From Escherichia coli (lineage in GTDB: Bacteria; Pseudomonadota; Gammaproteobacteria; Enterobacterales; Enterobacteriaceae), in assembly GCF_016903815.1 (NCBI RefSeq), contig NZ_CP069973.1: DNA of 64,000 bases. One strand, 5' to 3'. The translations under genes and the position numbers were made by a program. The number at the start of each line of letters is the position of its first letter. Within the stretch, counting starts at the first letter, position 1. The notes under the pieces are model-generated. The model worked only from the letters and a program-made list of their open reading frames with translations. It did not search any database and was not told the DNA's origin. This document shows, one piece after another, positions 1,466-35,125 of the stretch.

Positions 1466-4400
1466 ATGAGGCACTTTATCTTTCAGGACGAAAAATCACA
1501 TAAATTCTGGGCGGTGGAGCAACAGGGAAACGAGTTGCATATCTGTTGGGGAAAAGTTGGCACCAAAGGGCAAAACCAGGTAAAAAGTTTTGCGGATGCT
1601 GCGGCAGCGGCAAAAGCGGAGCTTAAGCTGATCGCAGAGAAAACGAAAAAAGGCTATGTGGAAAATGCTTTAGCAAACGTGCATATCCCCCCCATCACCA
1701 AAGCCACTCCTGAAGTTGAAACCTCCCCTGAGAGTAAAAACAAACGCCCATGGGTGGCTGATGATGCAGTCATTCCGGTAACTGGCGATATTAATCGATT
1801 TGCTTTTCCTCATCGCTCTCGCCCCAGAGAGATCAATTATCTGTACAAAGATGGCCAAATATGGAAGCGCATCGCGAATAACACCAGGGCATATGACCCC
1901 GACAATAATTACCGCTCTTATCCTGAAAACTGGCAGCTGGCGTTTGCCGAGTTACAAAGGCGAATTCTGAATAATCAACAAACAGGAAGTATACAATCTG
2001 ATGCGGCATTGCTCTGGAATTTATGGAACTCTTACTCTACAGATGAACTGGTCGATGACTTAGTCATTCGCTGTGGTCTGGAAACTACCGTTGAAATCGC
2101 CCTTCTCGCTCTTCAACTCAAATATAAACCAGTAAAAGCCGACGTCACCACCATTATTCCCCCTGATCTCAAAGCAGAATCACTACCGAACTGGCATCAA
2201 CGTCTATGTCATCATCTTTCACTCGCTTCAGAAGATGAGTGGCAACGCTGTGTAGATAAAGTTCTCGCTGCTATTCCCTCGCTATCCCCAGCACGGCAAC
2301 CTTTTGCGGCGTTACTGCTCCCTGAACGCCCGGATATTGCCAATGCTATGGCGCTACGTTATGCAGATCAAAACGTTCCGGCGATGACCTGGTTAAGACT
2401 GGTGGTAACCGATGACGCCGCTCTGACTACAGCAGAAAAATACGACTTCCCACCGTTGTATCATGATTTTCGCGCTTATCTGGCAATGTTGCTGGCAAAT
2501 AATGGGGTGCGCGGTGTAAGCCGGATACTTCTTGAGTTTACGGAAGAGCATTCTGACAATCCCACTTATCTCTTCGAGCGCATCAGCGAGACTGAAGATC
2601 TTGTCAAATGGCTATGGAAAACGAATCACCCGGATGCGATTCAAATTCTGATCCTCGGTGTAATTGGCAAGAAAAAGCACCTGGAATACTTAAGCAAAGC
2701 CTGTCAAAAACATCCCGCTGCGGCTCTTGCCGCTTATGCAACTTTACTGGCAATACATGAAGATGCACAGTGGCGTAAAGCGCTTGTCAAACTGATTACC
2801 GCCACGCCAGATTTAGTCACTGACGTCATTCCCTGGGTTAATGCTAAAGCGGCAGGCATCTTATCTGAATGTCGTACTCAGTTAGTCGCTGAAGAATGTG
2901 AATACGCCACTGCGGATATGTTGCCGGAGCTGTTTGTCGCTCCACCGTGGGTAATAAATAAGAAAACGAATGTAATACCCGTATTTGATTTACCGGTGCT
3001 TCCCATCCCTGCAGTCACTGACATCACGCCAGGAATTACAGAGTTAATCAGTCATACTGACATATCCAGATTCAGTGAAATCGCGCAATATCAGTCATCA
3101 CAGCAAACCTTATTTACCGACCTGCCACTAATTGAAAAAGAAAGCTGGGAGACATCTTTCATTCCTTTTACACCAGAACAACAAATCCTTTGGCAATTAG
3201 GTTTTAATGAATGGCTGCATTGCGAAGATGACTTACATGAAAAAAAATATATACCGCAAAGCGCTGTTGATGCCTTGTTGCGCTTTGATTTTCCAGCACT
3301 AAAAGCTGAGTTTGCGAAATATCACAACAATGCCAACAAAAGCTGGAATCTATCTGCGCTTTGTTACTTACCGGGACAACAGGCGATTTCATTTCTCAAC
3401 CAAATAATCATTGAGGAGCGATATTCAGGTGAGAAAGAGATTCTGGCAGTTTTTGGTAGTACGGCCATTCCTGCGTTTATGACCTGCTTGCAACGAGATC
3501 ATCAACGACTGTGGATATTCACCCTCTTTATTGGGGCCAGTGAACTAGCCTTACCAATGGCGCAGCGGTTACAGAAAAAAATGGCTTACAAGGATGCCAT
3601 TAATTGGCTGGCAAATAACCCGCGCCATGCCGCCGCCGGGCTACTGCCTTTGGCGCTGGGCAAACCGTGCCAAAATCGGGAATATGCCCGCCAGGCATTC
3701 CGCCTGCTAGTGAAATTAAACCAGCGAGAAACGATTGAAGAAATCGGCCGGAGATACAACCAACCTGATGTTTTAGCTGCGCTGGCAACATTGTTCGATA
3801 GCGATCCGCTGGAAGAATATCCCGCTAAAATCGCCCCACTGCCCGGCTTTTATCAGTTCACCTTATGGCGCAGACCACGGCTTAAAAGTAACAACCTGCC
3901 TCTGCCAGATGACGCTATGCGCCACCTGGGCACAATGTTGAGCTTTCCACGCGACATTACCTCCTACGCTGGGCTGGCGACCATCAAAGAGACCTTCACC
4001 CACGAATCACTGGCTGACTTTGGCTGGGATCTCTACACGGCATGGACAGAAGCTGGCGCACCCGCAAAAGAAAACTGGGCATTTACTTCGCTTGGGATTT
4101 TAGGCAATGACGACACCGCACGTAAATTAACCCCGCTTATCCGTGCCTGGCCGGGTGAATCCCAGCATAAACGCGCGGTTTACGGGCTGGATGTATTAGC
4201 TGATATTGGCAGCGATGTTGCGCTAATGCTGCTTAATGGCATCGCGCGAAAAATTAAATTCAAAGCATTACAGGAACATGCCCGCGAGAAAATCAACATA
4301 GTTGCTGAAAACCGTGGGCTGACTATGGCTGAACTGGAAGACCGCCTGGCTCCAGATTTAGGGCTTGATAACAGTGGCTCGCTGATACTGGATTTCGGCC

Positions 4401-19665: not shown

Positions 19666-20397
19666 ATGGCGCTTTACACAATTGGTGAAGTGGCGTTGCT
19701 TTGTGATATTAACCCTGTCACGTTACGCGCGTGGCAGAGGCGTTACGGATTGCTGAAACCGCAACGGACAGACGGCGGCCATCGGCTGTTCAACGATGCC
19801 GATATTGACCGGATCCGCGAGATCAAACGCTGGATCGACAACGGCGTGCAGGTCAGCAAAGTTAAAATGCTGCTCAGTAATGAAAATGTTGATGTGCAGA
19901 ACGGCTGGCGCGATCAGCAAGAAACATTACTGACTTACCTGCAAAGCGGCAATCTGCATAGCCTGCGAACGTGGATCAAAGAGCGCGGTCAGGATTACCC
20001 CGCCCAGACGCTCACCACACATCTGTTTATTCCTCTGCGCCGACGACTTCAGTGCCAACAACCGACTCTCCAGGCGCTGCTGGCGATCCTCGACGGCGTA
20101 CTGATCAACTACATCGCCATTTGCCTGGCTTCGGCACGTAAAAAACAGGGTAAAGATGCGCTGGTGGTTGGCTGGAATATTCACGATACCACCCGTCTGT
20201 GGCTGGAGGGCTGGATTGCCAGTCAACAAGGATGGCGCATTGATGTCCTCGCCCACTCGCTCAATCAACTACGCCCTGAACTGTTCGAAGGCCGTACATT
20301 GCTGGTGTGGTGCGGTGAAAATCGAACCTCCGCCCAACAGCAGCAACTCACCAGTTGGCAGGAACAAGGCCATGATATTTTCCCACTCGGCATTTAA
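19666..20397 (+). CDS. mlrA: MerR-family transcriptional regulator, 243 aa
   Basis: N-terminal MerR HTH YTIGEVALLCDINPVTLRAWQRRYGLLKP. Confidence 0.9.
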   Translation: MALYTIGEVALLCDINPVTLRAWQRRYGLLKPQRTDGGHRLFNDADIDRIREIKRWIDNGVQVSKVKMLLSNENVDVQNGWRDQQETLLTYLQSGNLHSLRTWIKERGQDYPAQTLTTHLFIPLRRRLQCQQPTLQALLAILDGVLINYIAICLASARKKQGKDALVVGWNIHDTTRLWLEGWIASQQGWRIDVLAHSLNQLRPELFEGRTLLVWCGENRTSAQQQQLTSWQEQGHDIFPLGI

Positions 20398-20456
20398 TCA
20401 TTCGTTAACAAATGCGCTTTACTGTACAATCCTTTCGTTAACATAAGGAGTGCATC

Positions 20457-20564
20457 ATGCGCATAGCTAAAATTGGGGTCATCGCCCTGTTCCTGTTTAT
20501 GGCGTTAGGCGGAATTGGTGGCGTCATGCTCGCAGGTTATACCTTTATTTTGCGTGCTGGCTAA
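20457..20564 (+). CDS. yohO: Small hydrophobic membrane protein, 35 aa
   Basis: Strong SD taaggag 7 bp upstream of [38 protein letters not shown]; 3' end overlaps yehW convergently. Confidence 0.6.
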
Positions 20565-21276
20565 GCGCCTGCACCAGCCTTTCAAACAGGCGGTCTGCAA
20601 TGATCGCCGCCAGTGCCACCAGTAACGCCCCCTGGATCACATACGCGGTATTAAATCCGCTAAGCCCGATGATGATGGGCGTACCCAGCGTGCTGGCCCC
20701 TACCGTTGAGGCGATCGTCGCCGTACCAATGTTGATAATCACCGAAGTTCGCACGCCCGCCAGAATCACCGGAGCCGCCAGCGGTAGCTCGACCTTACGC
20801 AGTCGCTGACCACGGCTCATTCCCATACCTTTCGCAACTTCTGTCACGCTGACATCAATCGCTCCCAGCCCGGCAAGTGTCGCCTGCAGGACGGGCAGCA
20901 CGCCGTAAAGGATCAAGGCGATAATCGCGGGTTGCAGACCAAAGCCGATCACCGGAACGGCAATCGCCAGCACCGCAACGGGCGGAAAAGTCTGCCCAAC
21001 GGCGGCAATAGTTTCCACCAGTGGGCGAAATTCCGCGCCCCACGGGCGAGTAACAATAATTCCGGCACCAGTACCAATGATCACCGCAAACAAACTCGAA
21101 ATTCCCACCAGCCAGAAATGAGCCAGTGCCAGAGCTGCAAAGCTTTCCTGCTGATAAACGGGTCGTGGCAGTTGTGGGAACAAGGCAGCAAACAGCGGCT
21201 GGCTGTAAGGCAGCCAGAAAAGCAGTGCCACAAACAAAGCAATGAGCCAGAACAGCGGATCGCGCAACATCTTCAT
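20545..21276 (-). CDS. yehW: ABC transporter permease (osmoprotectant uptake system)
   Basis: 243-aa polytopic membrane protein in the yehZYXW cluster. Confidence 0.9.
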
Positions 21277-29609: not shown

Positions 29610-29782
29610 GATGAGCATTCAGATAGTGGTTCACGCGCACGGGTTGCGCACCGCCGGAGTAAGGATTTACTGAGGCTAGCGACGCCATCATAACGAGCAA
29701 AAAGTGCGATCGTCAAAGGAGAATCGTGAGGAAATGCTGCATTGCTGACATTTACGCCAGCAATGCAACACAAAAGAACTTT

Positions 29783-32009: not shown

Positions 32010-32061
32010 CGAGTTCTCCACTTAACGCTGAATAAACGTTAAGTATAGAAGGCGCATATCA

Positions 32062-33498
32062 TCAGCGTTTGTAACCCCCGCCCAACGCACCAGTGAGTTG
32101 AATGGAGGCATCCAGCCACTGCCCTTGCAATAACAGGCCATTGGCCCGCTCACGCAGCGCGGGGATTCTGGCTTCGCTGACCCGGGAACCCGCAATGAGG
32201 CCCGCGTTAAAGCGCGCCTGCGCAAGACCTACTACACGCAAGGCATCGCGCTCAATTTGCGCCTGATGCTGGTTTTTCTCCGCCAGTGTCTGAACCTGAC
32301 TGGCTGCCTGCGCCACGTCATTCACCGCTTCAACCACCGCTTTGTTGTAGCTGGCGATAGACAAGTTGCTTTCGGCTTTTGCGATATCGAGGTTGGCGTT
32401 AAGACGACCACTATCGAAAATGGGTAGCGTCAGGCCTGCCGTAACGCCCATTTGCTGCGCGGAATGACGGAACAGATCGCTTAAGTGCAACGCATCCTGT
32501 TGCAGGAAGGCCATCAGGTTGATGTCAGGATAAAATGCCGCTTTTGCCGCATCAATAGTGCTTAACGATGACTCAACGTACCAGTGCGCCGCCTGCAAAT
32601 CTGCCCGCCGGGCCAGTAAGGAGTACCCCAGTTCATCAGGAAGCTGGCTTGCCACTTTCGGCAACGCGACCGGATTAAGCTTCAATGCCTTTGTCTGGTG
32701 ATTTGTAAGTGCGCTTAACCGTGCCTCAATAATTTTCATTTTCCCCGCGACATCGTTGAGCTGCTGCCGGGTTTTGCTGGCATTAATATCGGTTTCCACA
32801 CCTTCAACTGAAGAAGTAATCCCGTTCTGATATAGCTGGCGATCGGTGGCGATAATAGTGTTCTGCTCTTTTTCGATTTGCTGTAAGACCGTGTTTAACG
32901 CCGCCTGGGTTTGCCACTCCCAGTACAGACGGGCTACGCTGCCAGCCAGCAATTGGCGGGTTTGCTCGCGTTCCGCCGCCCGTGCTTTAACCGTACCCAG
33001 GCGAGCAGTAACCTCCGCCCGATTCTTTCCCCAGATATCGAGATGCCAGCCCGCCGTTAAGCCAAAAGTACCGTTGGTGTACCACGGACCGGTCGTACCT
33101 GCGGCAGGATCGTTCAGAGCAAACGGCCCCATTAACCCTTCTGCAGACATTTTTTGCCGCTCCATATCCGCAGAAAAGTCGATCTGCGGACCATCCTGAG
33201 TGGCAATTGCCTTCGCCTGGGCTTCAGCCAGCTGAATGCGCTGTTCAGCCACCTGCATATCCGGTGCGCTCTGTAGTGCGTTATTAATTAAGGAAGTGAG
33301 TTGATTATCGTGATACTCCAGCCACCATTGGCTGTCTGGCCAACCATTTTTCAGCGCCGTGGGTAATGCGGTGTCAACTTGTGCAGCGGGCGTTTGCTGG
33401 CTTAACGCCTGGCGGGTTTCATGCATAGGCGCACACCCGGTCAGCATCAGTAACAGCGGAAAACAGGCGATGGCTGGATAAAAAAAATCACGATTCAT
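32062..33498 (-). CDS. mdtQ: Outer-membrane efflux (OMF/TolC-type) lipoprotein, apparently intact (478 aa)
   Basis: Lipoprotein signal with LTGC lipobox; continuous ORF. Confidence 0.8.
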   Translation of the reverse strand: MNRDFFYPAIACFPLLLMLTGCAPMHETRQALSQQTPAAQVDTALPTALKNGWPDSQWWLEYHDNQLTSLINNALQSAPDMQVAEQRIQLAEAQAKAIATQDGPQIDFSADMERQKMSAEGLMGPFALNDPAAGTTGPWYTNGTFGLTAGWHLDIWGKNRAEVTARLGTVKARAAEREQTRQLLAGSVARLYWEWQTQAALNTVLQQIEKEQNTIIATDRQLYQNGITSSVEGVETDINASKTRQQLNDVAGKMKIIEARLSALTNHQTKALKLNPVALPKVASQLPDELGYSLLARRADLQAAHWYVESSLSTIDAAKAAFYPDINLMAFLQQDALHLSDLFRHSAQQMGVTAGLTLPIFDSGRLNANLDIAKAESNLSIASYNKAVVEAVNDVAQAASQVQTLAEKNQHQAQIERDALRVVGLAQARFNAGLIAGSRVSEARIPALRERANGLLLQGQWLDASIQLTGALGGGYKR

Positions 33499-33721
33499 GG
33501 GGGAATAATCAGGTAAGAAAAGGTGCGCGGAGATTACCGTGTGTTGCGATATATTTTTTAGTTTCGCGTGGCAATACATCAGTGGCAATAAAACGACATA
33601 TCCAGAAAAATATACACTAAGTGAATGATATCTTCCGATTTATCTTAATCGTTTATGGATAGCGGCAAAGGGCTTCGTTTTTTCCTATACTTATTCAGCA
33701 CTCACAAATAAAGGAACGCCA

Positions 33722-33805
33722 ATGAAAATTATACTCTGGGCTGTATTGATTATTTTCCTGATTGGGCTACTGGTGGTGACTGGCGTATTTAAGATGATAT
33801 TTTAA
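33722..33805 (+). CDS. yohP: Small membrane protein, 27 aa
   Basis: aaaggaacg SD then ATG; MKIILWAVLIIFLIGLLVVTGVFKMIF. Confidence 0.55.
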   Translation: MKIILWAVLIIFLIGLLVVTGVFKMIF

Positions 33806-33899
33806 AATTAATTAATGTCATCAGATCCGAAAATAACGAGAATATTTCAGTCTCTCATCCTGTTGCGCTCCTGTCATGTGCATTGCTTCATATAATCAC

Positions 33900-34130
33900 T
33901 GGCGCAAGGAGCGCGCAGGGGGCGACCAATCGCCGCCGCCCCCTGCACCCCCGGGCTCTGGCGAACAAAATCGCCGCTGCGCGGTGCCCTCGGCTTATCC
34001 CTTACGGCTACCGGGTCGGGCGCGAGGTAACATCCCTGTAAAACGCGCCCTCAGCCCACATCCATGTGGGCTGCCCCGGCCTTCAGGGAACGCCTCGGCG
34101 ATTTTGACGCCACCAAACAACCGTGCGGCC
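33900..34130. repeat. GC-rich structured intergenic element with nested inverted repeats
   Basis: cagggggcg...cgccccctg; cagcccacatc/catgtgggctg perfect palindrome; ggcgaacaaaatcgccg mirrored by cggcgattttgacgcc. Confidence 0.4.
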
Positions 34131-34177
34131 TATTGATAAAGAGCTAACACATTGTCAAAAAACATCACTATGGTTTC

Positions 34178-35125
34178 TTAGAGTTTCTCGATATCAATTG
34201 CCTGAATAGCCCTTGCAATATCATGGGAATTATTCAACACCCGAACATGCTGAAATAATTCCGTTGCTTCATCGTATTCTTTACGCAAATAACTCAACCA
34301 CTGTTTAATCCGCGCTACGTGATATAACCCGGTATCGCCCTGCTTTTCCAGACGGGTATATTTTTGCAGCAAAGCAACCACCTCCGGCCACGGCATTCGC
34401 GGTTCGTTATATTTTACCACACGGCTCAGGTTGGGAATATTGAGCGCCCCGCGACCAATCATCACTGCGTCGCAGCCGCTGATCGCCATGCATTGTTGCG
34501 CGCTCTGCCAGTCCCAGATTTCACCGTTGGCAATCACCGGAATATTCAGCCGCTGGCGAATATCGCCAATCGCCTGCCAGTCAATATGCTCCGCGCGGTA
34601 ACCCTGCTCTTTCGTCCGCCCATGCACCACCAGCTCCGTAGCGCCAGCCTGTTGCACCGCGTCGGCGATTTCAAATTTCTTCTCACCGCTGTCCCAGCCC
34701 AGACGCACTTTTACGCTGACGGGCAAATGCGCTGGTACAGCTTCACGCATCGCTTTTGCCCCCTGGTAGATGAGTTCAGGATCTTTGAGTAACGTCGCCC
34801 CACCGCCGCTACCGTTAACCGTTTTCGACGGGCAGCCGCAATTGAGATCCACGCCCCAGGAACCTAACTCCACCGCACGGGCGGCGTTCTCTGCCAGCCA
34901 TTGTGGGAACTGACCTAACAACTGCACGCGCACCAGCGTACCGGAAGGTGTCCGGCTGGCATTTTGTAGCTCAGGGCAAATGCGATGAAAGACTTTTATT
35001 GGCAGCAGTTGATCCACCACGCGGACAAACTCGGTGATGCACAGATCGTAGTCGTTAACTTCGGTCAGCAATTCACGCACCAGAGAGTCAAGCACTCCCT
35101 CCATCGGTGCCAGTAACACACGCAT
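34178..35125 (-). CDS. dusC: tRNA-dihydrouridine synthase C
   Basis: [14 protein letters not shown]-terminus, Dus TIM-barrel motifs; 315 aa. Confidence 0.9.

Follow-up and report, generated by a model that had tools for sequence, protein, structure and literature searches.

Two very small hydrophobic open reading frames (ORFs) in a 64,000-nt stretch of Escherichia coli DNA (hereafter, the window) raise the question of whether they are genes at all and, if so, what their products might do in the membrane. A first-pass annotation had proposed that each is preceded by a good ribosome-binding site and encodes a single transmembrane helix. Both ORFs were present exactly as it had described them: an ATG-initiated ORF of 35 codons ending in TAA at 20457–20564 (plus strand), with the Shine-Dalgarno (SD) sequence TAAGGAG at 20444–20450 on the same strand, and an ATG-initiated ORF of 27 codons at 33722–33805 (plus strand), whose product is MKIILWAVLIIFLIGLLVVTGVFKMIF. 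Read directly from the sequence, the TAAGGAG of the first ORF lies 6 nt upstream of the ATG, and the SD-like AAGGA of the second ORF (33711–33715, plus strand), also followed by the ATG 6 nt downstream, is weaker. The proposed single transmembrane helices agreed with the hydrophobicity of the products, the best 19-residue Kyte-Doolittle (KD) windows scoring 2.41 and 2.96 and the GRAVY values being 1.58 and 2.47 for the first and second product, respectively, and, for the first product, with the AlphaFold2 model described below. A census of all ATG ORFs of 20–50 codons on both strands of the whole window (n = 507) indicated that only these two combined an SD-like motif 5–16 nt upstream with a 19-mer of KD at least 2.0, a pattern that is therefore unlike that of random short ORFs. 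The first-pass annotation had thus singled out, from sequence alone, exactly the two real microprotein genes among 507 candidates.

To identify the two ORFs, we compared their surroundings with 5426 complete E. coli genomes. The 401-bp stretch around the first ORF matched 5423 of these genomes with 95%–100% identity, and the 401-bp stretch around the second matched 5425; the features annotated under the matches were mlrA, yohO and yehW for the first stretch and yohP for the second. RefSeq lists “protein YohO” (WP_001216963.1) and “small membrane protein YohP” (WP_000691708.1, between mdtQ and dusC) at the matching places. The two products are letter-for-letter identical to the “UPF0387 membrane protein YohO” (YOHO_ECOLI) and to the reference entry “Uncharacterized membrane protein YohP”, respectively. 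Because both sequences exactly match annotated reference proteins, we regard yohO and yohP as a rediscovery of annotated genes and not as new genes. The suggestion that such proteins are easily missed does not apply to this pair, since both genes are already catalogued and carry RefSeq annotation; passages in papers that cite the work credit their discovery to Hemm et al. 2008.

Family models gave the same assignment. YohO matched the NCBIfam equivalog NF010225 over residues 1–35 of 35 (80.1 bits; cutoff 57), and YohP matched NCBIfam NF011345 (67.3 bits; cutoff 58) and Pfam PF25659 (50.6 bits; cutoff 27). The apparent lack of a Pfam family for YohO was a database-version artefact, because the family PF27791 (“UPF0387_membrane”), which appears in the precomputed annotation of four more distant loci (L084–L087, positions 4001–4108), was absent from the Pfam-A copy that we searched. 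A sub-threshold match of YohO to B12D in that same copy, which holds no YohO model, was dismissed. In E. coli K-12, YohO (b4542) has the same 35-aa sequence and sits at the same place between mlrA and yehW, and the sole difference noted between the two loci is one base in an upstream ArcA box, at window position 20399. YohP (PF25659; NF011345), a 27-aa stress-induced protein, is likewise unchanged in sequence in the window, where its gene again lies between mdtQ and dusC. In strain 7/2, the gene order is btsR-btsS / mlrA-yohO / yehW-yehX-yehY-osmF at the yohO locus and yohD / yohF-mdtQ / yohP / dusC / yohJ-yohK-cdd at the yohP locus. We are nearly certain that both ORFs are genuine, already known genes for small inner-membrane proteins.

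To follow the yohO frame beyond E. coli, we performed a pattern scan using one genome per species, which returned relatives in 163 species, and kept 80 loci spanning Escherichia, Salmonella, Citrobacter, Klebsiella/Raoultella, Kosakonia, Leclercia, Pluralibacter, Trabulsiella, Shimwellia and others, together with four from Erwinia. An intact ATG ORF of 34–37 codons was found in all of them (80 out of 80), with AGGAG upstream in nearly all; the AAGGAG of the SD was at least 95% conserved among 69 distinct upstream sequences. Entropy at codon positions 1, 2 and 3 was 0.54, 0.19 and 1.27 bits, respectively (79 distinct sequences). Over codons 2–29, the portion outside the overlap with yehW, pN/pS was 0.24 in the yohO frame and 1.1 and 2.9 in the other plus-strand frames, one of which contained stops in all sequences. 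A phmmer search of a library of 1.84 billion representative sequences with YohO returned 17 clusters, every one at least 60% identical, so the family is narrow. At the protein level, a Ribo-seq profile has been published for yohO with a citation of Hemm 2008 (10.1101/2020.05.05.079178), and native YohO has been seen by top-down mass spectrometry at less than 50% sequence coverage (PMC12529367). yohO is a translated coding gene under purifying selection.

The first-pass annotation had named a missing translation signal and an unconserved reading frame in related genomes as grounds for abandoning the ORFs. Neither ground holds: the published Ribo-seq and mass spectrometry evidence shows translation, and the yohO frame is clearly conserved. 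These data also settle whether the two ORFs could be chance open frames in intergenic DNA. Short ORFs are plentiful, as the 507 in the census illustrate, but such a reading is contradicted by the annotation, by the curated families and by frame-specific conservation across genera, as well as by Ribo-seq, mass spectrometry and tagged-protein data; its probability is close to nil, and we treat it as excluded.

We then examined the gene neighborhood of yohO. As the first-pass annotation had stated, the gene lies between mlrA (19666–20397, 243 aa) and the yeh transporter genes, starting 59 nt past the mlrA stop at 20397, and it overlaps the 3′ end of yehW on the opposite strand. The yehW ORF occupies 20545–21276 of the minus strand (243 aa), and the last 20 nt of yohO, 20545–20564, coincide with its last six codons, the first base of the seventh-from-last codon and the stop. 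In 74 out of 80 loci, the yehW stop starts 88 nt past the first base of the yohO ATG, with a convergent overlap of 17, 20 or 26 nt. The 20-nt overlap was also found in L084–L087, where YehW is 67%–69% identical and the upstream genes are metG or HTH_5 genes, and mlrA was absent from nine loci that keep yohO. Because the overlap persists while the upstream neighbors change, these comparisons show a tighter linkage of yohO with yehW than with mlrA. Synteny with yehW is by itself no proof of a functional tie, however, because two overlapping genes can part only if one of them is truncated.

Departures from this arrangement were seen in a few genomes. Escherichia sp. MOD1-EC7003 (L005, 3109–3300) has lost yehW, yehX, yehY and most of osmF, whereas yohO is intact; a remnant of about 80 nt from the 3′ end is all that is left of yehW. 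In Erwinia, yohO lies about 130–190 nt upstream of a same-strand gene for a 492-aa MFS transporter, and the yeh operon is absent from the vicinity. In two of these species (L030, 3001–4716; L081, 3001–4776), this transporter is of the Sugar_tr/MFS_1 type, the upstream genes differ between the two, and the YohO homologues have 34 aa with RS at the C terminus. In Trabulsiella odontotermitis strain 01 (L068, 3250–3600), the yehW match covers residues 1–97 only and stops short of yohO, pointing to truncation of yehW or to an error in the assembly.

A hairpin scan of the locus found no terminator-like site 3′ of either gene, and ExcludonFinder names yohO–yehW as a convergent excludon on the basis of E. 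coli RNA-seq coverage (PMC12288877). One hairpin inside yohO itself (20474–20489) was ignored as a terminator candidate, with 1 found against 0.7 expected by chance. A search against Rfam matched no family at the yohO or yohP locus. The sole Rfam match within the window was the Peptidase-S11 RNA motif RF03039 at 29614–29694 (minus strand), with 72.8 bits against a gathering score of 34.8.

To determine how yohO might be expressed, we aligned the sequences upstream of the gene. A scan for consensus sigma-70 promoters upstream of yohO returned no match, so we turned to comparative conservation for the promoter. Of 74 distinct upstream sequences, 71 had a −10 hexamer of the form TA[TC]A[AC]T, which in 54 stood at a distance of 26 nt from the ATG; on this basis, the −10 element of the window is predicted to be TACAAT at 20425–20430 (plus strand), with TATAAT in most genera. 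The consensus scan missed it because there is no good −35 element at a distance of 16–18 nt. Among 69 sequences, the conserved block reads TTAAT..TTCATTAACA, 5 nt, GCTT, 5 nt, TA(T/C)AAT, 7 nt, (G)TTAACA, T, AAGGAG, 6 nt and ATG, and its upstream part, TTAAT..TTCATTAACA, is 85%–95% conserved across Enterobacteriaceae. The block is kept in nine species without mlrA, and the −10 hexamer, the downstream GTTAACA and the SD are kept in the more distant L084–L087, with metG or small regulator genes upstream. Because these elements persist without mlrA upstream, yohO should be independent of mlrA read-through, and it appears to have its own conserved promoter in the 59-nt gap after mlrA, with a start site predicted about 7 nt past position 20430. 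Co-transcription with mlrA as the sole source of yohO expression was rejected, since both the block and yohO persist without mlrA.

The putative promoter contains an ArcA box at 20394–20411 on the minus strand, overlapping the mlrA stop codon and the yohO −35 region. The window differs from the K-12 version, ttgttaacgaatcattaa, by one base (c instead of g at 20399, plus strand). Escherichia sp. MOD1-EC7003 has the K-12 version. In K-12, Park et al. 2013 (PMC3798270) placed “yohO” among 176 ArcA regions from ChIP-seq/ChIP-chip (Table S1), gave its box as ttgttaacgaatcattaa on the minus strand with 14.2 bits (Table S3), scored a second direct repeat as weak (1.56 bits) and counted yohO among the multi-repeat ArcA sites (Table S4); Table S8 places yohO in a set of 31 operons with low expression and an ArcA site upstream (7.17 versus 7.77). 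Genes of the ArcA regulon are expected to have an upstream box of direct repeats 11 bp apart that is bound in vivo, and for yohO the box is present in the window, is conserved and is covered by the ChIP data from PMC3798270. In Shigella flexneri, yohO was reported with a log2 fold change of −2.96 under anaerobic versus aerobic conditions, that is, about 8-fold down, with no FNR effect listed (PMC4229854). This anaerobic repression fits the published ArcA site in the promoter. Binding of ArcA at yohO is well supported, and repression of yohO by ArcA is plausible.

A second copy of TTAACA (TGTTAA on the other strand) occurs at 20438–20443 (plus strand), near the predicted transcription start and 33 bp (3 × 11) from the first copy at 20405–20410. 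This second copy is at least 85% conserved, and TTAAC copies are spaced by exactly 33 bp in 48 out of 74 distinct sequences; it may be an additional ArcA direct-repeat element. Directly downstream of mlrA, the −10 region of yohO in E. coli (20423–20430) reads TGTACAAT, which is identical to a half-site of the palindromic MlrA box of csgD. The likeness is probably a coincidence, because other genera have CGTATAAT instead.

We next considered the YohO protein. AlphaFold2, run with 32 distinct YohO homologues, predicted one helix over residues 3–33 with a mean pLDDT of 92. Along this helix, residues 2–17 vary in sequence and keep their hydrophobicity, and the C-terminal half, an 11-residue segment from G18 to Y28, is near-invariant. 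G19, I20, G22, V23, M24, L25, G27, Y28 and, beyond this segment, I31 show no variation; conservation is 90% or higher for G21 and A26, and position 18 is G or S. Small residues at i and i+4 in transmembrane helices are a signature of tight helix–helix contacts, and the GxxxG or glycine-zipper pattern is typical of self-associating helices; YohO has such spacing in G18/G22/A26 and G19/V23/G27. The N-terminus bears two basic residues, R/K2 and K5, and the C-terminus bears one, R33, together with the carboxylate. The balance of positive charge thus favors the N-terminal end, from which we infer an N-in orientation by the positive-inside rule. A sequence search of the PDB found no entry containing YohO or YohP, and literature searches for a function or partner of YohO returned gene lists only.

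For YohP, the published picture is fuller. The protein is recognized post-translationally by SRP/FtsY and inserted by SecYEG or YidC (PMC7549839; review PMC12648545); it is mostly C-in/N-out, forms SDS-resistant dimers and is encoded by an mRNA that localizes to the membrane (PMC7549839). YohP increases in stationary phase, in minimal medium and under oxygen limitation; it lowers membrane potential and fluidity and raises cardiolipin (PMC12719787, PMC12542507). The depolarization is sublethal and is followed by the phage-shock response, the stringent response, condensation of the nucleoid and “metabolic silencing”. The first-pass annotation had offered modulation of transporters or kinases as a likely role for such proteins. 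For YohP this suggestion finds no support in the literature, which points to partner-independent membrane depolarization and metabolic silencing (PMC12719787, PMC12542507) and involves no specific transporter or kinase.

The surroundings of yohP vary between strains. Upstream, mdtQ (about 32060–33500 in the window) is an intact gene for a 478-aa outer-membrane protein in the matching strain; it was called a pseudogene in the E. coli strain of PMC12719787. In about 2050 of the 5425 E. coli genomes, including O157:H7, homology ends exactly past the yohP stop codon. The yohP–dusC spacer is polymorphic over window positions 33807–34190 (core 33825–34123); in O157:H7 FRIK804 (L083, 2828–3126), a spacer segment of about 300 bp is inverted, with 87% identity, and parts of the segment are found at up to three places per genome. 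These patterns suggest an intergenic element that is mobile or repeated at low copy number.

Several readings of the role of YohO have to be weighed. Known small-protein modulators are usually co-transcribed or co-regulated with their partner, and we found this for neither gene: yohO runs toward yehW from a separate promoter that includes an ArcA site, and yohP forms a unit by itself between the oppositely oriented mdtQ and dusC. For both proteins, we found no complex in the PDB and no interaction paper in literature searches that would name a physical partner. On genomic position, YohO could serve the glycine betaine ABC transporter YehZYXW (OsmF/OsmU type) as a dedicated accessory subunit or regulator, with its helix binding the YehW/YehY permease in the way that KdpF, AcrZ or MgtS bind their partners. 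Many characterized small membrane proteins act in this way (review PMC12648545), and the 17–26-nt overlap with yehW is kept in 74 out of 80 loci and in L084–L087 despite replaced upstream genes. However, an overlap of this kind can hold gene order in place even between functionally unrelated genes. In addition, yohO and yehW converge and are not co-transcribed, and their listing as an excludon implies antagonistic expression. Transcription of yehZYXW depends on sigma-S, which contrasts with the ArcA site at yohO. The survival of an intact yohO after deletion of yehW–osmF and its presence in Erwinia without a nearby yeh operon also speak against a dedicated subunit, and we consider this role unlikely.

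YohO might instead act without a partner, like YohP and YncL, with the glycine-rich helix oligomerizing and perturbing the bilayer or the membrane potential as a mild, toxin-like effector. The GxxxG/glycine-zipper pattern of the helix would allow this, and YohP and YncL, of similar size, cause sublethal depolarization and nucleoid condensation (PMC12542507). Eleven near-invariant residues all around the helix suggest a more specific contact, however, and no antitoxin-type sRNA family matches the yohO locus; partner-independent action is, in our judgment, unlikely. The locus could also act mainly at the RNA level, with ArcA-controlled yohO transcripts running antisense into yehW to tune yehZYXW and the peptide being secondary. 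The overlap of the coding regions by 20 nt, the lack of a terminator-like site after yohO and the listing of the pair as a convergent excludon (PMC12288877) agree with such tuning. By contrast, strong purifying selection on the peptide, also outside the overlap, the conserved SD, the detection of the YohO protein and the retention of the peptide without yehW in Erwinia would all be unexpected, and a mainly RNA-level locus seems to us very unlikely. RNA-level and peptide roles are nevertheless mutually compatible.

Taking these results together, the explanation that we hold with confidence is that yohO and yohP are the known genes, each for a single-pass inner-membrane microprotein; for YohO, the mode of action that we consider most likely is helix packing under a putative ArcA-gated promoter. 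Under this explanation, yohO would be transcribed from its own promoter, with the TATAAT-like −10 element flanked by two TGTTAA repeats 33 bp apart, and phosphorylated ArcA would shut the gene off when respiration is limited, so that YohO would be found mainly in aerobic cells. The protein would form one N-in helix, whose glycine-zipper-like G18–Y28 segment would pack tightly against transmembrane helices, either those of other YohO molecules or those of a larger protein, and this packing would alter the partner or the bilayer. That the packing serves a specific role, through another partner protein or through self-association, is in our view about an even call. The leading candidate partner would be the YehW/YehY permease, on genomic grounds only. 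Because yohO has no detectable terminator and its transcript would run antisense into yehW, a secondary antagonism with yehZYXW at the RNA level, of the excludon type, is plausible.

A bolder form of this proposal, in which YohO is an ArcA-repressed aerobic micro-subunit whose G18–Y28 segment binds YehW/YehY of the OsmU-type transporter, is quite improbable. If true, it would couple osmoprotectant uptake to the respiratory state through binding, antisense transcription or both, and it would explain why the tail-to-tail overlap of yohO and yehW has outlasted every change of upstream neighbor. The autonomous promoter, the ArcA site with its 11-bp phasing, the glycine-rich half-helix and the yehW overlap all offer leads toward a YohO partner. 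They extend what is known of an existing gene and do not amount to a new kind of system.

Comparison with known systems places YohO near several of them. In size, single helix, condition-specific expression and adjacency to a transporter operon, it resembles the small proteins of the pairs KdpF–KdpABC, AcrZ–AcrB, MgtS–MgtA, MgrB–PhoQ and CydX/CydH–cytochrome bd. Small proteins of the KdpF, AcrZ, MgtS, MgrB and CydX type are usually co-transcribed or co-regulated with their partners, and their binding has been demonstrated, whereas yohO is convergent to its neighbor and has a different regulatory site. A type I toxin–antitoxin system needs a dedicated antisense sRNA antitoxin, whereas the only antisense partner of yohO is the 3′ end of the yehW mRNA. 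As for toxicity on overproduction, another trait of small hydrophobic toxins of this type, literature searches returned an effect for YohP only, in the form of sublethal depolarization. With convergent excludons, whose overlapping ends make expression mutually exclusive, the locus shares convergent genes with overlapping 3′ ends, and the yohO–yehW pair is itself listed as one; compared with other convergent excludons, the overlap at yohO–yehW includes the coding sequence of both genes.
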